Under the pieces are notes generated by a model that saw nothing but the letters and a program-made list of their open reading frames with translations, did not search any database and was not told the origin of the DNA. Source: a phage. Taken from it: a stretch of 64,000 nt of DNA. Made by a program: the position numbers and the translations under genes. Below, piece after piece: positions 13,383-34,723 of the stretch. Each line of letters opens with the position of its first letter. Position 1 is the first letter of the stretch. The DNA is taken from the sequence record NC_100372.1. One strand, given 5' to 3'.

Positions 13383-15719
13383 TTACCAAAGATCTGTTGA
13401 CATAAAGTTAATATCTTTGTTGTTCTCCCACTCAAGTTTTGCATCAATTATTTTGTTAAACTCGCCCTCATTTATTGAAATAGTGATTTTCCCATCACTG
13501 ATCTCTAAAGGTAGCATTTCCATAGTTCTTAATTGAGAAGCAAAACCAGGGCCACCTGGCAACGGAAGAGTACCGCCAGGTAAGGTGTCCAAAGGATCAA
13601 CAAACCCGTTACCTCCGGATATAATATCTTTGCGAATCATATCGCTGATAGTATCCAGTTGCTGATTTCTTTCACTCAGCGGGTTGAAACGGTCATTAAA
13701 TAACTCTCCGGCACTTAATATTGTGCCGATAATGCCCAGCTTGCCAAGTATGCCAACTTTACCACCAGGTGTCTTGAGGCCACCTCCACCTTTTCCTGCT
13801 GCGCCTCCACCACCAGATCCTTCTGCAGTGGCTGCACCTGCTGCTCCAGCTGCACCTCTTAGAGAACTAAGGAATTTAAAGGTTTTTACAAGCATGGATG
13901 CCATGACAAAACCTTTTGTCAGGGCGTTGACGACCAGCATGATGGCAGCAGCAAACCCTGCCCATTTAGCATAGCTAAAGGTGTCATGAAGCTCTTCAGA
14001 ATATTCCTTCGTCTTAGCTGTTATGAATCCCCATTTAATCCCCCATTCAAGGAAAAACATGCGGATCTTGACTATAGTGTTGTTCAGTTCACCAACTACC
14101 CAGTTAAGACCTCTCACAAACCCGCTAACAAAATCACCAGAGGCATCCCACACAAATTGCAAAGTCTCACCAGTGCGGATCAGTGTATAATAGAACTCTG
14201 TTAGTTCGTCAGCCCAACGGGTGAACAGTTTCTGACGGGACAGTTCGATGAAGGTTTTCAGTCTGTTTTCTGCCAGCACGTTAGACTTCTGCATTCTCTC
14301 ATAACCAGCTGCAGATGCCTCGTTCATGTACTTAGCCACATACTTCATGATCTTGGCTGTTTTAACCTCACCTTTCTTCATCATGTCCATGAACTGATCC
14401 ATGGAGAGTTCAGAAAGACCAAAAGCCTCTTTGGTGGCCTTGATGAAAGGTTCATATGCCCCAGGTAACGCCTCAGCAAGCTGTTGCTTAAGTTCTTCTG
14501 ACATTACCTGTCCTTTACCAAGCATTTGCTGGATTGCCATAATACCGCGCTGGTATTTTACCTCATCAGCACCATAAGCAGCAGCATATTGAGAGTATGC
14601 AGAGAATAGCTCATGTACCTCTTGGTTTGTCATCTGATTTTTGGCGTTCACCGCCATCTGAGAATAACCCTGAAGACCAGATTTGAGATCAAAACCAAGA
14701 CGCATAGCCTCCTGCTGGACAAACGCAACTTCACTGTTGGCTTTGTTTGGATCTCCAGTAACAGCAGTAAGAGCAGCACTTGCCCCCTCCATCATGTGAC
14801 CGGATCTGTTCACCGCAGCAAATCCAGAAAAAGCTGTATACGCAGCTGTTGCATTAATAACAGATCTACGTAAGTCTCTCAAGGCATCGCCTAGTGTAAG
14901 CGTTTGGCTGGTGGCGCTTTTAAACCCAGACTGCAGAGCTGACAGGTGGGCGTTAAAGGTTGACTTTTTCATCTCTCCGCGAGCAAACCTGGACTCTAAC
15001 TCGGAGTATCCTGGCAAGCTTCCACGGAATCCGGCTCCATACTTGGCAGAAAGTCTTATCGCAGAGTTGTATAGGTGGGTTCTCCTTGCCTCACGATCCG
15101 ACATAAGCCTATTATCCATACCAGCTTTACTGTCCCTTCTTAGCTGCCTATGGTAACGGTTCATAGCCGCTGTCTGAGCTTTCACAAGATTAGGGTCGGA
15201 AGCCACACCACCCATGTTAGGGTTACCGGGGATATATTTGAAAGATTTGGCATTAGCCAAAACTCTTGCCTTAGGTGCCTTATACCCGCCGTAAGACACT
15301 GGTGCAGATTTGGCAGCCTTTTTGGCCTCTTTAGCTTGCTGCTGGTAGAACTTACGCATCCTTGCCATTTCTGGATTTTTAGCAGTAAGATTACCTACAG
15401 CTTGTTTACGTCTCGCGTTCTCCCTACGTTCTATTGCAGCCCTTACTGCAGCCTCTTTCTTGGCTTGTGCTACGCTCTCCCTGTGCAGTTTAGCATTTGC
15501 CTGAGATTGCTGCCTGGCAACCCGCTGCATTGTTTGCTGGGTTTTAACAGCCACTGCCTGCCATCTACTCATTGGGTTGGCTGAGTTAAAATCCTCGCCC
15601 AGTTTCCTGAACTCCCTCCCAATACTGCGAATTTTCTCTACAGCTTTTTTGTAGGAGGAGTTCTCTATCTCAAAGCCAATCTTGTTGACTGTTGTGGCAA
15701 CTATTTTGTTTGTAGCCAT
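13383..15719 (-). CDS. tail tape measure protein
   Basis: 778 aa, Ala/Gln/Lys-rich helical sequence with internal Gly-rich tract (AAGAAGAATAEGSGGGGAAGKGGGGLKTPGG); follows putative tail chaperone genes. Confidence 0.7.
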   Translation of the reverse strand: MATNKIVATTVNKIGFEIENSSYKKAVEKIRSIGREFRKLGEDFNSANPMSRWQAVAVKTQQTMQRVARQQSQANAKLHRESVAQAKKEAAVRAAIERRENARRKQAVGNLTAKNPEMARMRKFYQQQAKEAKKAAKSAPVSYGGYKAPKARVLANAKSFKYIPGNPNMGGVASDPNLVKAQTAAMNRYHRQLRRDSKAGMDNRLMSDREARRTHLYNSAIRLSAKYGAGFRGSLPGYSELESRFARGEMKKSTFNAHLSALQSGFKSATSQTLTLGDALRDLRRSVINATAAYTAFSGFAAVNRSGHMMEGASAALTAVTGDPNKANSEVAFVQQEAMRLGFDLKSGLQGYSQMAVNAKNQMTNQEVHELFSAYSQYAAAYGADEVKYQRGIMAIQQMLGKGQVMSEELKQQLAEALPGAYEPFIKATKEAFGLSELSMDQFMDMMKKGEVKTAKIMKYVAKYMNEASAAGYERMQKSNVLAENRLKTFIELSRQKLFTRWADELTEFYYTLIRTGETLQFVWDASGDFVSGFVRGLNWVVGELNNTIVKIRMFFLEWGIKWGFITAKTKEYSEELHDTFSYAKWAGFAAAIMLVVNALTKGFVMASMLVKTFKFLSSLRGAAGAAGAATAEGSGGGGAAGKGGGGLKTPGGKVGILGKLGIIGTILSAGELFNDRFNPLSERNQQLDTISDMIRKDIISGGNGFVDPLDTLPGGTLPLPGGPGFASQLRTMEMLPLEISDGKITISINEGEFNKIIDAKLEWENNKDINFMSTDLW

Positions 15720-28965: not shown

Positions 28966-29042
28966 TGGTCTCCACGGAGTGATTCGAACACTCGACCTCC
29001 TGATCCCAAATCAGGCGCTCTACCAAGCTGAGCTACGCGGAG
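28966..29042 (-). tRNA. tRNA-Pro (anticodon TGG), CCA encoded
   Basis: Manual fold: acceptor CTCCGCG/CGTGGAG (one G-T), D arm GCTC/GAGC, anticodon stem CCTGA/TCAGG with loop TTTGGGA, T arm GAGTG-TTCGAAT-CACTC, 3' ACCA. Confidence 0.75.
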
Positions 29043-29053
29043 TATTTATTATT

Positions 29054-29128
29054 TGGTGGCCCTGGGTGGAATTGAACCACCGTCTGGCGATTATGAGTCG
29101 CTTGCTTGAACCTTCCAGCTACAGGGCC
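29054..29128 (-). tRNA. tRNA-Met (anticodon CAT; initiator, elongator or Ile2-type undetermined), CCA encoded
   Basis: Manual fold: acceptor GGCCCTG/CAGGGCC, anticodon loop CTCATAA, T loop TTCAATT, 3' ACCA. Confidence 0.7.
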
Positions 29129-29129
29129 A

Positions 29130-29205
29130 TGGTGCTGATGGCAGGACTTGAACCTGCAACCTATTGATTACAAATCAATTGCACTGCCAATTGTGCTACA
29201 TCAGC
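29130..29205 (-). tRNA. tRNA-Thr (anticodon TGT), CCA encoded
   Basis: Manual fold: acceptor GCTGATG/CATCAGC, anticodon stem ATTGA/TCAAT with loop TTTGTAA, T arm GCAGG-TTCAAGT-CCTGC; 1 nt after tRNA-Met. Confidence 0.75.
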
Positions 29206-29211
29206 AAAAGG

Positions 29212-29308
29212 TGCTAGGTGATGGAATCGAACCACCTATGTATTCAACGACTACCTCGTCTATTTTCAGGATTAAAAATCCTCGCCCTTGCCAAAGGGCT
29301 TACCTAGC
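29212..29308 (-). ncRNA. atypical 97-nt tRNA-like element (possible Lys-UUU-type anticodon loop; not a canonical fold)
   Basis: Perfect 7-bp acceptor GCTAGGT/ACCTAGC, D arm GCCC-TTTGGCAA-GGGC, T arm GGTGG-TTCGATT-CCATC, but the central region is two short hairpins (AGGATTTTTAATCCT and GACGAGGTAGTCGTT), about 31 nt between anticodon-like hairpin and T stem; A at position 8; 3' end ACCT not CCA. Confidence 0.4.
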
Positions 29309-29406
29309 GCAATATGTTGACCATGTGGCTAGTCGGCGATGACGACTGTAACATTTGATAATCCGGTTCTGCTTCCGGCTTTCGCTTAATTACAAGGTCA
29401 ACAATG

Positions 29407-29497
29407 TGGCGGAGAGTAATGGAATCGAACCATCATCGAGTCATCCTCAACGGGACGGTTTTCAAGACCGCTTGAGCACCATTGCTCCCTACCCTCC
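29407..29497 (-). tRNA. tRNA-Ser (anticodon TGA), type II with long variable arm, CCA encoded
   Basis: Manual fold: acceptor GGAGGGT/ACTCTCC (one G-T), anticodon stem GCGGT/ACCGT with loop CTTGAAA, variable arm about 17 nt, T arm GATGG-TTCGATT-CCATT, 3' GCCA. Confidence 0.7.
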
Positions 29498-29611
29498 TTT
29501 ATAAATTACACTGATAATGACACTGATTTTCGAGCAGTTAGTGACTAGTATAAACGACGATAAATATCAATGTCATTATCTGTATGATTTATGCATTTAA
29601 AAATATAAATT

Positions 29612-29698
29612 TGGTGGGGAGTGGTGGAGTCGAACCACCCGAGTCGCAATGACAATAGATTTACAGTCTACACCGCTACCTCTACGGGATAACTCCCC
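29612..29698 (-). tRNA. tRNA-Tyr (anticodon GTA), long variable arm, CCA encoded
   Basis: Manual fold: acceptor GGGGAGT/ACTCCCC, anticodon stem GTAGA/TCTAT with loop CTGTAAA, T arm GGTGG-TTCGACT-CCACC, 3' ACCA. Confidence 0.7.
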
Positions 29699-29702
29699 AA
29701 TT

Positions 29703-29777
29703 TGGCACCCCGTACTGGACTCGAACCAGTGTCAACGGCTTAGAAGGCCGCTGCTTTATCCACTAAGCTAACAGGGC
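29703..29777 (-). tRNA. tRNA-Arg (anticodon TCT), CCA encoded
   Basis: Manual fold: acceptor GCCCTGT/ACGGGGT (two G-T), D arm GCTT/AAGC, anticodon stem GCGGC/GCCGT with loop CTTCTAA, T arm ACTGG-TTCGAGT-CCAGT, 3' GCCA. Confidence 0.7.
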
Positions 29778-29835
29778 ACTGGGTGGCTTTCTTTTACACC
29801 TGAGCCGCCAGAAAAGGTGGGAGACCATGTTTATA

Positions 29836-29864
29836 ATATTACACTGTTAGGCAAAGTTTGTCAA
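29836..29864 (-). promoter_or_regulatory. consensus sigma70-type promoter for the tRNA operon
   Basis: Minus strand TTGACA (29864-29859), 17-nt spacer, TAATAT (29841-29836); about 60 nt upstream of tRNA-Arg 5' end. Confidence 0.6.
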
Positions 29865-29873
29865 GAAAATATT

Positions 29874-30212
29874 TTAACTATTGCCAACAGGCTGTATTTC
29901 TGTGGTAAATGGCATAAAAGGTGCTGGTTTTTCAGCCTCTTCTACTACCACCTCTTCCTCTTCACCAAACATCTCATCATATTCTTCCTGCATTCGGTCT
30001 GCCTTATCAAGAACATACTCTGCAATGCTTTGACGAATATTTTGTTTGGTTTTCGGGTCCAACATCAGCTCTCTTAAAACTTTGTGAGCTTCTGGAACCA
30101 TCGCTATAAAAGATTCCTTCATATCAAGAATGTTCTTCTCTAGCTGAATGGCGTTGGACTCCTCTTTCAGAGGTCTGCCTCTACGGCGACGCTTTTTAGT
30201 TGTATCCGCCAT
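29874..30212 (-). CDS. small basic protein with AT-hook-like motif
   Basis: Start set at internal ATG 30212 with RBS GGAGGA (ORF track start at 30332 lacks RBS); N-terminus MADTTKKRRRRGRPLKEE has GRP AT-hook core; acidic C-terminus. Confidence 0.4.
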   Translation of the reverse strand: MADTTKKRRRRGRPLKEESNAIQLEKNILDMKESFIAMVPEAHKVLRELMLDPKTKQNIRQSIAEYVLDKADRMQEEYDEMFGEEEEVVVEEAEKPAPFMPFTTEIQPVGNS

Positions 30213-30557
30213 GTTTCCTCCATTATCACGTGATAGGTGGATTTTATCACGGCAAATACTGATTGTCAAGTTCGCCGCAGGGTGGTATTCCCTGCGACTT
30301 GCCCAGCGTCCTGGACCAGCAAGACCCAACAAGTGGGTTACCAGATACCCATTACCGCGCTCTGGCTCGACCTTATTACAGGTTGGCTGGGGTCACATCG
30401 TCATGTGCTGGCTGCCCCTACCATTTTAAGTGTGGTGCACTATCAAGCCCTCTAAGGGGAACTCAGCCTTCTCCGAACCCTGTTTCAAAGCATCCGGAGA
30501 TAAAGCCATCAAACTCATCTTTAAATTGGATATTCATCATGATACACGAAAACAACC

Positions 30558-30800
30558 TCATTGTAAAGCACAAATAAATAAAACATACTTAATTTGTTTG
30601 TTATCGGGCTCAGGGTAGAAGTAGAAGATCTTGCTATCACCAATCTGAACACCACCATCCCAACAACATAAACCATAACCAGTATTCATACAAGCTAAGT
30701 CGTTGGCAAAATCTATTGCATCATCTAGTGCACGAAATTCACCTTCATCTTCTAAATAATCCTCATTCATGGAACGGAAAACGAGCTTAACCTTAAACAT
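30558..30800 (-). CDS. hypothetical protein
   Basis: 80-aa ORF on the minus strand. Confidence 0.3.
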   Translation of the reverse strand: MFKVKLVFRSMNEDYLEDEGEFRALDDAIDFANDLACMNTGYGLCCWDGGVQIGDSKIFYFYPEPDNKQIKYVLFICALQ

Positions 30801-30876
30801 AGCATTACCTGTAGACCTCGTAAGTTAAAATTGTATCACATCATATTGCAGATCTTATCAGGTAACATTATTTTTG

Positions 30877-31086
30877 TCAACAGATTCCGGCCTTATCCTT
30901 CCTGTCTGCGTATTCTTTAATCGCAACCTCACCTGCATTGGTGACTAGATCTTCAAAGTAATTCTCAAGCTCCTCGTCAATGTCCGGTGACCAGCTCTTT
31001 TTCCTGTCGGTGTGAATTGCAGACTTGTTGAACTTATTACAGTTCTTTGCTACCGGATTGTTCATTAAGCTCTCCTCAACGTTCAT
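30877..31086 (-). CDS. hypothetical protein
   Basis: 69-aa ORF; stop overlaps the start region of the upstream 192-aa gene. Confidence 0.25.
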   Translation of the reverse strand: MNVEESLMNNPVAKNCNKFNKSAIHTDRKKSWSPDIDEELENYFEDLVTNAGEVAIKEYADRKDKAGIC

Positions 31087-31654
31087 AGTAAATCTTATTC
31101 AACATTACCTCATCGTTTGCAGAAAGGATATCAAGATATGCATCACCAAATCTGCCTGCAACAACCTCTGCATGATACATCACTTCGTTAACATCGTCAA
31201 GAGTGATAACCGGATGACCATATCTTTCTGAATATTGTCTCAGGGTGCGATGTAACGAGTCGTCATCATATGCAGACTTTTTAATATCACAAACACGACG
31301 AATAGCCTTGATGTCGAAAAAACCTGTGCGATACCACCCAAGAAAAAAGTTCCGTGTAGTGTCAACATCTACATCAATACCATTAAGAACCTTATCTACA
31401 AGATAGCTGTCATCCTTTGGACTAGTGTCCTTAGTGCGAATGTAGTTGCCATCTTTTCCAGGTGATAGCTCCTTCTCATCACCAACCTGCATGCCATCAT
31501 TTGGCGGTGTTAGCCACTTATCAGGATGCTTACGATCACGAGCGTTAGAATGATTACGCTGGAAACCTGGCTTCCACTTGAAAGTTTTCTCCATCTGTTC
31601 TTCATTCTGATAACGTTTTGCAATCTTTTCACTGGCATCTTTGCGTGAACTCAT
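31076..31654 (-). CDS. hypothetical protein
   Basis: 192-aa ORF with RBS-like GAGGAG upstream of ATG at 31654; preceded on the minus strand by about 660 bp of ORF-free sequence. Confidence 0.4.
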   Translation of the reverse strand: MSSRKDASEKIAKRYQNEEQMEKTFKWKPGFQRNHSNARDRKHPDKWLTPPNDGMQVGDEKELSPGKDGNYIRTKDTSPKDDSYLVDKVLNGIDVDVDTTRNFFLGWYRTGFFDIKAIRRVCDIKKSAYDDDSLHRTLRQYSERYGHPVITLDDVNEVMYHAEVVAGRFGDAYLDILSANDEVMLNKIYYER

Positions 31655-32160
31655 AGCAGACTCCTCTTCAAGTTATAGAAAAAACTCACTGTATCGCTTT
31701 GTAACGAGCTTTTCTATCAAACTGGTGCGATTGCCTTACTTGGTATAGTTTATATAGCTGTGGAGCGATTTAGGGGCCTTCTTGTCAGTTTCCACACATA
31801 AACTTTATCCGAACTCGCGCGGGAGGCTCTCAACCGACTCCTTCCGGCGCTGGCAAGCTTTCGTCGGTGGTCCACATTAGTGCTCGGCCTTTGGCCTGTG
31901 CTATCGCTTCGCTCCCACACATGTTAACAGTCCTGCATGTATGCACTTCTGTTATTGTGTGCACTATGGAGGCCCGGCATCTCGCCCCTCGTAGGCGAGT
32001 GCCAATGAAGGGCCGACACTACCCATAATAAGTAATAAATTTAAAACATGGTACTTAGGATCTAGTATATTCTACATAAGTTAAGTATATGTACTTTAGT
32101 ACCATAAGTACTAGATCTTTTATTTTTTATTATTTAGTTATTTTAGTTATATTCTTTATG

Positions 32161-32243
32161 TGTCCGTATCACGGACAGTTAGTGTCCGTATTACGGGCAA
32201 ATGTGTCCGCGTGACGGACAGTAGTGTCCGTATCACGGACAGT
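32161..32243. repeat. array of four phased palindromic sites (consensus GTGTCCGTATCACGGACAG)
   Basis: Copies start at 32161, 32183, 32204, 32225 (21-22 bp phasing); copies 1 and 4 identical, 2 and 3 degenerate; each has 7-bp inverted arms TGTCCGT / ACGGACA. Confidence 0.65.
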
Positions 32244-32316
32244 TACTAACCTCTGTTCCATAGTGAACATAAAACATACAAATCCTTATAGTACAGATGT
32301 TTAAGTTTTTACTGGT

Positions 32317-32667
32317 CTAACCAGTTGTTGACATTCGAATAACTTCTTCTGGTGGCAAAACTTTGGAAAATGTGCATCTTTTACCTCTCCCTTGTGTGGA
32401 TATTTCAACCACTCCTGCACATTCTAAAGTTTTAACGCACGCTGCTGCTTTTGTTTTCTTTATCCCAACATCTGCTGCAATTTTCCTTGTGCTGGGTGTG
32501 AAGCGTAAATTTTCTCCAAGCTTATACCAGTTGTGCAGGTAGCAGTATACGATCTTGTCATATAAGTCAAGAACAACAACCTCCCCAGTTGTGTCATTCA
32601 AAACTTTTGACATAGACAGTATTTCAAGGGGGACTTTAAGATATAGCAGCTTATCCCCATCTTTCAT
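32317..32667 (-). CDS. putative DNA-binding protein (helix-turn-helix / winged-helix-like)
   Basis: 116 aa; segment STRKIAADVGIKKTKAAACVKTLECAGVVEISTQGRGKRCTF resembles an HTH recognition helix plus wing; the palindromic array lies just 3' of this gene. Confidence 0.35.
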   Translation of the reverse strand: MKDGDKLLYLKVPLEILSMSKVLNDTTGEVVVLDLYDKIVYCYLHNWYKLGENLRFTPSTRKIAADVGIKKTKAAACVKTLECAGVVEISTQGRGKRCTFSKVLPPEEVIRMSTTG

Positions 32668-32714
32668 ATCTCCTGATTCTCCTTGTGTGGCAATTTTCTT
32701 TAAAATAGCAGGGA

Positions 32715-33269
32715 TTACTCCCCGCTGTCAATAGCAAGACTCATTGCAATACGGTATGCCTCTTCTAATGGTAAGAGTCTCCCCCACACATCCCAACCGA
32801 CATCAAACTGCCTGCCAAACAACTGCTGTGTGGTTCCGTGAGCATGACCGAACAGTTGGACTGATCCGTGAGGCTTTCTGTTCCACTTTGCAAACTGGTA
32901 ATGGCTCATACAGATCAAATTCTTGTTGTGGCGAAGCTCGTAATAATCTACAACCTCATGACCGAACTCTTTCATAATTCTGACAGTCGTCCTTGTGTCA
33001 TGGTTACCACGAACAAGAATAATATGTCCGTTCAACATATTTAGAACATCTGGAAGCAATTTGTTGATATTCTTATCATTAGTGCACGCAATATCCCCCA
33101 AGTGAAACACAGTGTCTGCAGGTGACACAACAGAGTTCCACTTGGTGATGATTCCCGCATTCATACTGTCAAGATTGTGATCATACTGAGATCTGTGTTT
33201 TTGACATGAGTCGAACTCCATTACCCGCTGGTGGAGAAAGTGTGTGTCGCTTGTTACAAAGTATTTCAT
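32715..33269 (-). CDS. calcineurin-like metallophosphoesterase (candidate RNA 3'-phosphatase)
   Basis: Start set at ATG 33269 with RBS GAGGAA; motifs SDTHF (DxH), GDIA (GDxx), VRGNHD (GNHD), GHAHG (GHxH). Confidence 0.7.
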   Translation of the reverse strand: MKYFVTSDTHFLHQRVMEFDSCQKHRSQYDHNLDSMNAGIITKWNSVVSPADTVFHLGDIACTNDKNINKLLPDVLNMLNGHIILVRGNHDTRTTVRIMKEFGHEVVDYYELRHNKNLICMSHYQFAKWNRKPHGSVQLFGHAHGTTQQLFGRQFDVGWDVWGRLLPLEEAYRIAMSLAIDSGE

Positions 33270-33276
33270 ACATTCC

Positions 33277-33687
33277 TCATTTAAGTTTAATGCAGTTTTT
33301 AAGCTGGCGTTCCATACGATCCACAACCCTGTCTGGAACATCATGAATGCTTTTATTACCATGGCGGTTTTCAACCACGATCACGGTATAACTATATCCA
33401 TGACTGATCGCCATGTCAATATATTCTTGCACATATTTTTCTTTTGTAAACGTATTACTTACCACGATACGGTCGTAGCCCATACGCATCATATCTTCTA
33501 CGTTATCTTTGCACCATTTTGCTGCAAGTGTTACTTTACTTGCATCCCAATTGTAATTGCCGTCATCGTCGTACCAGAACATATCGTTCTCAAAATGTGG
33601 ATACAGACCTTCTAAAGATAGCGCATTTGCCAGTGTTGATTTGCCAGACCCTGGTAGACCACGCACGATATATAGCATTTTAGACAT
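33277..33687 (-). CDS. P-loop kinase, polynucleotide 5'-kinase-like
   Basis: Start set at ATG 33687 with RBS GGAGAG; Walker A GLPGSGKST at N-terminus; 136 aa; 7 nt upstream of the phosphoesterase gene. Confidence 0.55.
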   Translation of the reverse strand: MSKMLYIVRGLPGSGKSTLANALSLEGLYPHFENDMFWYDDDGNYNWDASKVTLAAKWCKDNVEDMMRMGYDRIVVSNTFTKEKYVQEYIDMAISHGYSYTVIVVENRHGNKSIHDVPDRVVDRMERQLKNCIKLK

Positions 33688-33715
33688 AGTAACTCTCCGT
33701 TTTAATTTTAATGAT

Positions 33716-33744
33716 AGTATACCTAACTGTTTTGTTAATTTCAA
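33716..33744 (-). promoter_or_regulatory. sigma70-like promoter for kinase/phosphoesterase operon
   Basis: Minus strand TTGAAA (33744-33739), 17-nt spacer, TATACT (33721-33716); a plus-strand TTGACA at 33748-33753 suggests a divergent promoter for the ligase operon, but its -10 is weak. Confidence 0.45.
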
Positions 33745-33787
33745 GTGTTGACACCAAGTTATTTGTGTGGCAGGATAAAGGGACAAA

Positions 33788-34723
33788 ATGACAAATGAGG
33801 AATGTATAATGAAGTATTTTAATGCAGACAACCTAGTTGACAAAGGTCTTGTAACCAGCAGATATTACCCGGATCTTGGGTTAAAGATCTATAAATATGC
33901 CAGAAAAGTATTCTACAACAATTTATGGCATTTGTCTCCTCGTTTGCTGGAGTGCCGAGGCATTGTTGTCGGTAATGAAGGAAATGTTGTGGCATGGCCC
34001 TTCACAAAAGTGTTTAACTTGGGAGAAAATTCCACCAACCTGCCTGACAATAAACTTGTGACGGCGGTAGAGAAAAAGAACGGATTCCTTGGTGTGGTAT
34101 CATCTCATAAAGGTGAACTATTGTTCTCAACAACCGGGTCTCTTGATTCTCCATATTGTAACCTCGCAAAGGAAACAATCCAGGAGCAATGTGGTAATTT
34201 AGATCTTATCAAGAGGGTTATGGGCCATGAAAACATGACATTCATGTTTGAAATTTGTCACCCTTCAGATCCGCATATTGTTCAGGAAGATCATGGCGCA
34301 TATTTGATAGGTTGCAGATATAATGATTCTGGAATAATGCTACCAGAAGCAGCTTTAGATGGGATTGCCAAATACCTTGGTGCAAAACGTCCTCACACTG
34401 TGCGTGAAATTCCGTTCAGCTATGCAAAAGAATTAGCTGCAGAAACAAGAGGTGAAGGGTATATGATTCGTAAGCCTTACTACCCTTATGATCTGCAGCT
34501 GAAGATCAAGTCTCCATACTATTTGGCACGGAAGGCCGTAATGAGGGGTAAAGCTTGGAAGATTTGGGATGATGATATCTTTAAACGTGTTGACGAAGAG
34601 TTTTACGGCATGGTAAACTTCATTCGTAGAAACTACACAGAAGATGTGTGGAATTGCCTCCTGGAGCAGGAACGACGTGAGATACTTGACTGCTATTTCC
34701 ACAACGAGGACTATATGCAATGA
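33788..34723 (+). CDS. RNA ligase, Rnl2-like nucleotidyltransferase
   Basis: 311 aa; motif I EKKNGF (KxNG, cf. T4 Rnl2 KxHG), motif IV EGYMIRKP (cf. EGYVLKP), motif V LKIKS; alternative start at ATG 33809 with RBS GAGGAA. Confidence 0.6.
   Translation: MTNEECIMKYFNADNLVDKGLVTSRYYPDLGLKIYKYARKVFYNNLWHLSPRLLECRGIVVGNEGNVVAWPFTKVFNLGENSTNLPDNKLVTAVEKKNGFLGVVSSHKGELLFSTTGSLDSPYCNLAKETIQEQCGNLDLIKRVMGHENMTFMFEICHPSDPHIVQEDHGAYLIGCRYNDSGIMLPEAALDGIAKYLGAKRPHTVREIPFSYAKELAAETRGEGYMIRKPYYPYDLQLKIKSPYYLARKAVMRGKAWKIWDDDIFKRVDEEFYGMVNFIRRNYTEDVWNCLLEQERREILDCYFHNEDYMQ

Follow-up and report, generated by a model that had tools for sequence, protein, structure and literature searches.

The question raised by this locus is whether four palindromic repeats that lie beside a gene for a small, predicted DNA-binding protein are the operator of a regulator or the iterons of a replication origin. 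The window, i.e. the whole stretch of 64,000 nucleotides analysed here (sequence record NC_100372.1), belongs to a Vequintavirus, an rV5-like E. coli myovirus, according to the annotated records that it matched. For a 3-kb stretch around the array there were matches in 120 phage records; the match spanned 80% or more of the stretch in 116, and identity exceeded 95% in nearly all. (The label 'Campylobacter phage' is attached to eighteen records of this E. coli phage type.) The closest relative is phage NHEP1 (99.2% identical), whose complete genome of 137,037 bp, assembled from three pieces, served as the reference for genome-wide uniqueness and for the ranking of A+T content. A search for published work found no description of the array or of an rV5 origin, nor any Vequintavirus transcriptome or origin study, and some GenBank records mark the array merely as 'repeat_region'.

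The first-pass annotation had described four palindromic sites 21-22 bp apart, the outer two identical and the middle two degenerate, and both a repeat finder and mismatch-tolerant searching bear this out. The array consists of four copies of G-TGTCCG-N5-CGGACA-G spaced by 22, 21 and 21 bp (Table 1), which form one direct-repeat family of 22-nt copies with identities to copy 1 of 100, 77, 77 and 100%. Its core, TGTCCGT-ATC-ACGGACA, has 7-bp arms and a 3-nt centre, and the four units of 21-22 bp, each containing a dyad of 17-19 bp, lie 71 bp from the stop codon of the neighbouring 116-aa gene. The array was thus where it had been placed, at 32161-32243, except that the first unit actually starts at 32160 and the last, with its flank, ends at 32245. 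The proposed helical phasing stood only in part: the mean spacing of 21.3 bp fits two turns of the helix, but homologous modules in other phages are spaced at 22-23 bp, so that strict same-face phasing is not a conserved property, and the spacing is simply the length of the tandem unit.

The repeats are confined to this single locus. Tandem Repeats Finder reported a period of 21 with 4.0 copies and a score of 103-125, the sole array of such strength in the window, and no comparable tandem array was found in the remainder of one relative's genome. A search of the 64 kb with the 17-mer, allowing up to three mismatches, returned four positions, all in the array, a count that was reached in none of 100 shuffles (expectation, 0.08). 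When the complete NHEP1 genome was searched for TGTCCG-N5-CGGACA with at most one mismatch, the dyad was likewise found in the array only.

The AT-rich repeat block reported to abut the array is also present, directly adjoining repeat 1, and is the A+T maximum of the whole 137-kb genome in windows of 60, 100 and 140 bp. It contains the sole exact match in the genome, both strands searched, to GATCTnTTnTTTT, which is the consensus of the 13-mers at which E. coli oriC unwinds (the string also occurs in oriC papers). The two GATC sites of the block (32059 and 32114) fall in the arms of its imperfect inverted repeat. No match to the DnaA box (TTWTNCACA) or to the IHF consensus (WATCAANNNNTTR) was found in 31500-32800; such host-factor sites occur in many, not all, iteron-type origins. 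At the level of DNA, the locus therefore offers what is expected of an iteron origin, namely repeats, an adjacent AT element of the unwinding type, a single location in the genome and an adjacent gene for a candidate binder.

Table 1. Features of the array locus, with positions in the window, and repeats beside distant homologues of the 116-aa protein
Feature	Position or locus	Strand	Description
AT-rich block, candidate DNA-unwinding element	32025..32159		135 bp, about 80% A+T (over 140 bp)
Imperfect inverted repeat, 10/11	32057..32119		Arms AGGATCTAGTA (32057-32067) and TACTAGATCTT (32109-32119)
oriC-type 13-mer	32114..32126	+	GATCTTTTATTTT; contains a GATC (Dam) site
Two tandem 9-mers	32133..32150	+	TTTAGTTAT TTTAGTTAT; directly left of repeat 1
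Repeat 1	32160..32181		GTGTCCGTATCACGGACAGTTA; perfect 7-bp arms around ATC; core 32161-32177
Repeat 2	32182..32202		GTGTCCGTATTACGGGCAAAT; one arm mismatch (ACGGGCA); core 32183-32199
Repeat 3	32203..32223		GTGTCCGCGTGACGGACAGTA; 6-bp arms (TGTCCG-CGTGA-CGGACA); core 32204-32220
Repeat 4	32224..32245		Identical to repeat 1 (GTGTCCGTATCACGGACAGTTA); core 32225-32241
Gene for 116-aa winged-helix protein, candidate binder	32317..32667	-	Pfam DUF6945, HTH_36; PHROG 12838
Distant homologue P0016	L009		Two repeats at 23-bp spacing, with a CCGCTA-G-TAGCGG dyad, immediately after the stop codon; followed by an AT-rich block of inverted repeats
Distant homologue P0017	L011		Two 23-bp tandem repeats and AT-rich DNA upstream
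Distant homologue P0024	L021		22-bp tandem pair plus scattered TACCT-N3-AGGTA dyads; flanked by a primase-helicase operon and a DNA-polymerase operon
Distant homologues P0013/P0023	L008/L020		No clear tandem pair beside the gene

Directly to the left of the AT-rich block is a GC-rich, ORF-poor segment of about 280 nt (31745-32024), which occurs in Vequintavirus only and is for the most part unannotated. It is strongly conserved and contains long stems, e.g. GGCCC...GGCACTCGCC/GGCGAGATGCC...GGGCC, with RNA fold z-scores of -2.3 and -2.6 and, among eight relatives, one covarying pair and several G-U-compatible changes; Rfam gave no match for it. The segment may correspond to a structured RNA, or to a GC-rich flank of an origin. 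Small ORFs across the array and the GC-rich segment (window 32089-32214 (+); NHEP1 14150-14251 (-)), annotated as 'hypothetical proteins' of 33-56 aa in several records or merely callable, look like artefacts of the repeat and of non-coding DNA.

The locus lies within the leftward-transcribed part of this region. To the left of ~33,780 the genes are on the minus strand and include those for a polynucleotide kinase/ATPase, a phosphoesterase and the 116-aa protein, as well as several small ORFs and a tRNA cluster; to the right they are on the plus strand and encode an RNA ligase, a Sir2-like protein and others. The distance from the array to the cumulative GC-skew minimum (~33-34 kb) and the divergent gene switch is 1-1.6 kb. 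In the rV5 genome, the array and AT block correspond to ~65.0-65.3 kb. Because this minimum coincides with the switch in gene orientation, it is not independent evidence of an origin, and the skew analysis by which the authors of the rV5 genome sought an origin likewise revealed only switches tied to the direction of transcription (PMC3606486). Two further features of the neighbourhood were observed. Inside the tRNA cluster (28966-29777), a 99-nt tRNA-like gene at 29210-29308 (-) received an unusual 4-base anticodon call from ARAGORN; it is annotated as tRNA-Lys in one BASEL record and scored 35.5 bits with Rfam. In addition, the winged-helix gene is found within ~1.5-2.5 kb of RNA ligase 1 and/or polynucleotide kinase/phosphoesterase genes of the tRNA-repair type in three divergent phage groups (window 32317-34723; L014; L020), a conserved neighbourhood for which there is no evident reason.

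The small HTH-like gene to which the array had been said to lie just 3′ is present on the minus strand. The 116-aa protein matched PHROG 12838, which bears the label 'replication initiation protein', from end to end; it also matched Pfam DUF6945, at 28.7 bits against a cut-off of 28, and HTH_36, while Pfam RepA_N (PF06970) was absent among the matches at E values up to 1. A search with the single sequence (phmmer) matched PDB 4RO3 with an E value of 1.4e-5, and the family profile matched this one solved structure strongly, with an E value of 1.1e-11. An AlphaFold model built on 17 sequences (pLDDT 79; a model from 5 near-identical sequences reached pLDDT 49 and was too poor for use) comprises a small beta-hairpin, three helices, a wing and a C-terminal helix. 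Its best Foldseek matches were 4RO3 (E 1e-5, TM 0.65), followed by 4PQL, 4PT7, 5KBJ (a Rep-DNA complex) and 4PTA, and after these RepA_N domains came generic winged-helix matches, to repressors of the CodY and MarR/SlyA types. Kinship with RepA_N is visible only via 4RO3/DUF6945 and the fold. The model stops after the wing and one short helix, and so the protein is without the C-terminal domain of RepA_N initiators, a domain believed to engage the replication machinery of the host or of the helper. By sequence matching and modelled fold, then, the 116-aa protein is homologous to the N-terminal, iteron-binding domain of RepA_N-type initiators and stands alone as that domain. The members of this domain family that have been characterised bind to replication origins, at dyad repeats arranged in tandem. 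The 116-aa protein probably binds the repeats of the array.

Relatives of this protein are scarce. A word-indexed protein search returned four close clusters and one fragment only, and an exhaustive HMMER search of 1.8 billion representatives gave 14 matches, a handful of which are small phage proteins (E 1e-5 to 6e-4); finding these distant homologues required both the exhaustive search and a profile search. They share the N-terminal motif of the 116-aa protein and carry DUF6945/HTH_36, and some of them (182-217 aa) bear C-terminal extensions. A literature search found no paper that mentions DUF6945. Among the metagenomic homologues, P0012 (228 aa) has an N-terminal GIY-YIG nuclease fused to a C-terminal DUF6945 domain, i.e. 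the two domain types of the ICP1 protein Odn in reversed order. Three longer ones (P0010, P0017 and P0018) have an acidic tail ending in ...APF or ...PPF, which the window protein does not have and which we take to resemble the C-terminal tip of bacterial SSB. That tip recruits replication and repair proteins.

Within the phage collection, the array locus and the 116-aa protein are restricted to Vequintavirus (118 records). The protein family is found as well in the genera Henunavirus, Mydovirus and Seunavirus of the Vequintavirinae (hhalign probability 98.6%, E 1e-15), where a gene of 105-107 aa heads a rightward operon at a divergent intergenic region. There, an AT-rich stretch is followed by two 23-bp tandem dyad repeats and then by the ribosome-binding site of the gene. 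The AT-rich stretch has two AGATCT sites, which resemble AGATCTTTTATTTTTTATTATTTAG of the window, and the dyad is TGCTCAA-T-TTGAGCA in the Erwinia and Klebsiella phages, with a variant in Seunavirus. The orientation of the module differs, the array being 3′ of the gene in the window and 5′ of it in the sister genera. Among the distant homologues, a handful of loci were inspected by eye (Table 1); confirmed relatives of the P0013 and P0016 loci were not found among viral contigs. Overall, the association of the gene with 21-23-bp tandem dyads and AT-rich DNA recurs in three other genera and in some, not all, of the distant phages examined. The motif itself is kept in the Vequintavirus relatives, whereas the other genera have different repeat sequences, and such change from lineage to lineage is as predicted for a co-evolving protein-site pair. 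A further distant homologue, in Aeromonas phage 4L372XY (L015), is preceded by a very AT-rich intergenic region of ~390 bp (2441-2828) that is full of direct and inverted repeats, e.g. AATATAATAATGAATA twice, 32 bp apart.

The original view of the locus as an operator- or iteron-like array with a neighbouring small HTH gene is therefore supported by the winged-helix homology, by the uniqueness of the sites and by the recurrence of the gene-repeat-AT module. We lean, with a little more than even confidence, toward the array and AT block being a replication origin in which iterons and an unwinding element are acted upon by the 116-aa protein. In such an origin, we infer, the 116-aa product would bind each dyad-symmetric repeat as a dimer, and up to four dimers packed on ~86 bp would distort the DNA and help to open the adjoining 135-bp AT-rich block, at which the replication proteins of the phage, namely a gp4-like primase-helicase, a PIF1/SF1B helicase and DNA polymerase, would load. 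A primase-helicase of the gp4d type and a PIF1-like SF1B helicase are encoded by the rV5 genome (PMC3606486), and the NHEP1 annotation likewise includes a primase-helicase of the gp4d type and a PIF1-like helicase. By analogy with the Rep sites of iteron plasmids, the sites of the array may regulate transcription too, alongside their function in an origin. In those plasmids, Rep sites serve replication and autoregulation alike.

A purely transcriptional operator, through which the winged-helix protein would control a neighbouring promoter (its own or one in the AT block) while having no role in replication, is the alternative that survives best, and we consider it unlikely. The layout in the sister genera is that of an autoregulatory operator and counts against an origin: the sites sit directly upstream of the ribosome-binding site of the gene, between it and an AT-rich, promoter-like stretch with a TATAGT. 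The name 'putative transcriptional regulator', which several GenBank records give to the 116-aa protein, and the repressors that followed the RepA_N domains among the structural matches point the same way, as does a sigma-70-like element on the plus strand at 32264-32292. In the window, though, the array lies 3′ of the gene and cannot act on the gene's own promoter. The promoter scan predicted nothing over or beside the array, the nearest sigma-70-like candidate being that at 32264-32292, and the promoters and terminators predicted by the rV5 authors (their Table S4) likewise include nothing at this locus. Moreover, the specific matches in sequence and fold are to origin-binding domains, and a regulator acting at a single locus would leave the genome-extreme AT block and its 13-mer unexplained. 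As between iterons of an origin and an operator, the evidence favours the former, given the A+T maximum with its 13-mer and the lack of a predicted sigma-70 promoter over the array. The sigma-70-like element itself (TGAACA-17-TATAGT) lies between the array and the 3′ end of the gene; its -10 sequence is conserved, with TATAAT in phage Aya, and it is followed by a conserved hairpin, ACTGGT-CTA-ACCAGT (32312-32326), over the stop codon of the gene. If active, this element would yield a very short or antisense transcript beside the array.

Variation of the array within Vequintavirus was read from eight aligned relatives, with 29 sites in these 8 genomes. Most of these have four copies, nimi-type genomes have three and YN3 has two, the deletions always being unit-precise. 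Over the 29 sites the outer arms, G-TGTCCG...CGGACA-G, show no change other than at a single position of copy 2 and at one flanking base, whereas the five bases of the centre differ; copy 2 is a perfect palindrome in phage EduardKellenberger, and copy 3 has 7-bp arms in phage Aya via an A-to-G change. In the eight relatives the AT-rich block to the left hardly changes, and variation is seen in the 30 bp on the right-hand side of the array. Fixed arms, variable centres and changes that restore symmetry are, as read from the aligned sequences, the pattern of a site recognised by a symmetric dimer, although a hairpin would also fit.

This last point bears on the idea that the element works in RNA, with the four palindromes forming hairpins in the leftward transcript that serve as stabilisers, processing sites or terminators. 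The array does belong to the 3′ untranslated region of a transcription unit that runs leftward, the fold of the minus-strand RNA is much stronger than that of shuffled sequences (z = -6.2) and some of the changes among relatives restore pairing. The fold signal is a trivial consequence of the palindromic units, since any palindromic repeat automatically gives a strong fold, and the minimum-energy structure pairs neighbouring units instead of forming four separate hairpins. Furthermore, on the transcribed strand an A-C mismatch interrupts copy 2, the stems are not followed by a U-run, and a scan for terminators was empty here. Rfam scans of the window at the gathering threshold and of 29700-32400 under permissive settings gave tRNAs and one sub-threshold chance match over the array only. 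An RNA element would also leave unexplained the adjacent gene for a DNA-binding protein whose relatives bind such repeats, and we regard it as improbable.

Still less probable is some other DNA transaction, such as a packaging (pac) site, or a target or decoy in conflict with satellites or homing nucleases that use the same DNA-binding domain. The site is unique within the genome, DUF6945 is also found fused to GIY-YIG nucleases (P0012 and ICP1 Odn), and one assembly, MG065672.1 (phage A141), has its first base exactly at the right-hand end of the array (window ~32245). Assembly breaks are common at repeats, and the start of MG065672.1 is probably one of these. The gene for the large terminase lies over 4 kb from the array, the candidate binder is not terminase-like and no nuclease domain adjoins the array. 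Nor was the array found in any of the 5,426 complete E. coli genomes searched, or among the matches listed for species-representative genomes. These searches gave no evidence of a host-resident satellite with the same iterons, the first giving 0 matches and the second, among the matches listed, isolated single matches in unrelated genomes, mostly high-G+C taxa by name. Finally, that the array is a functionless tandem duplication, palindromic by accident, is scarcely credible: the copy number does vary among relatives, but the arms stay fixed while centres and flanks change, at least two copies are always kept and homologous genes in other genera have analogous arrays of different sequence.

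The iteron-origin reading of the array has several implications. Phages like rV5 rank with the E. coli phages that are isolated most often and serve in cocktails for biocontrol and therapy, and the locus provides a precise candidate origin, consisting of ~220 bp of DNA and one 116-aa protein. If its activity as an origin is confirmed, the RepA_N-type iteron-binding domain, so far characterised in plasmids of Firmicutes and in the PLE satellite of Vibrio, would be found to reach into the lytic phages of enterobacteria, a minimal, single-domain initiator would be defined, and a handle would be gained for phage engineering (replicons, copy-number control) and for the search for satellites or defences that target origins. 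In a more specific proposal, which we offer tentatively and at somewhat less than even odds, a 137-kb virulent myovirus would start replication from a plasmid-style iteron origin by means of a minimal initiator. This would consist of one DNA-binding domain of the RepA_N-like kind, would lack any domain for recruitment and would merely reshape the origin for the entry of the gp4-like primase-helicase and the SF1B helicase. If this is true, an origin type would be common to the whole subfamily Vequintavirinae. It would also suggest that the iteron-binding domain passed from proteins that bind the origins of lytic phages to satellite RepA and nucleases of the Odn type, or in the opposite direction.

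In layout, the locus is closest to lambda ori with the O protein and to the origins of the iteron plasmids P1, pSC101 and RK2. Lambda ori has four dyad-symmetric iterons of ~19 bp, each bound by a dimer of the O N-terminal domain, beside an AT-rich region that opens; it lies inside the O gene, and the C-terminal domain of O recruits P-DnaB. The likeness to lambda, four dyad repeats adjoining an AT-rich region, is one of layout only. In P1 oriR, pSC101 and RK2 oriV, an AT-rich element with GATC sites or 13-mers is followed by iterons about two helical turns apart and then by the rep gene, the order that is seen in the sister genera. The Rep sites of these plasmids double as autoregulatory operators, and their Rep proteins, which contain two winged-helix domains, bind as monomers to iterons that are asymmetric. 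Such origins usually contain DnaA boxes, whereas none were found near the array.

The closest system by sequence match and modelled structure is RepA of the PLE satellite of V. cholerae, together with its iterons. Structure 4RO3 is the dimeric N-terminal domain of this RepA_N-family initiator (Barth et al. 2020, PMC7145576), and it superposes on the N-terminal domains of the staphylococcal pSK41 and pTZ2162 RepA proteins, including the DNA complex 5KBJ (PMC7145576). Full-length PLE RepA binds the semi-palindromic direct repeats (iterons) of the PLE origin in gel-shift assays, and these iterons are required for PLE replication (PMC7145576). As at the array, where the binding sites are predicted, a homologous DNA-binding domain is thus paired with semi-palindromic repeats that lie in tandem in non-coding DNA. 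The two systems also have a similar kind of replisome around them, with a gp4-like primase-helicase and an SF1B helicase: the ICP1 proteins needed for PLE replication driven by RepA are of the same kinds as those of rV5. Unlike the window protein, which at 116 aa is an N-terminal domain only, PLE RepA has a C-terminal domain, and the iterons of PLE1 are three semi-palindromic repeats of ~30 bp (Barth et al. 2021, eLife, PMC8263062), as against four units of 21-22 bp with dyads of 17-19 bp here. Iteron function has been demonstrated in PLE, a satellite that depends on a helper, whereas the array is part of a lytic phage's own genome and is known from its sequence.

The RepA_N proteins of the staphylococcal plasmids pSK41 and pTZ2162 (4PQL, 4PT7, 4PTA and 5KBJ) share the N-terminal winged-helix fold of the window protein, and their iterons are direct repeats with inverted sub-repeats that are bound by dimers of the N-terminal domain (PMC7145576). 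These initiators act in Firmicutes and carry a host-specific C-terminal domain, and their iterons converge on a poly-A tract (PMC7145576), whereas the window protein has no Pfam RepA_N match and the centres of its putative sites are ATC, ATT or GTG. The phage nuclease Odn of ICP1 finds the PLE iterons via a homologous domain, so that the same DNA-binding family is used there to recognise the iterons of an origin; Odn, in contrast to the window protein, has a T5orf172/GIY-YIG nuclease domain and attacks a foreign origin (PMC8263062). If the minimal-initiator proposal is correct, the phage would use in its own genome the same trick that the PLE satellite uses on phage ICP1, and what is plausibly new is that a virulent myovirus of enterobacteria would combine palindromic iterons with an initiator of one domain.
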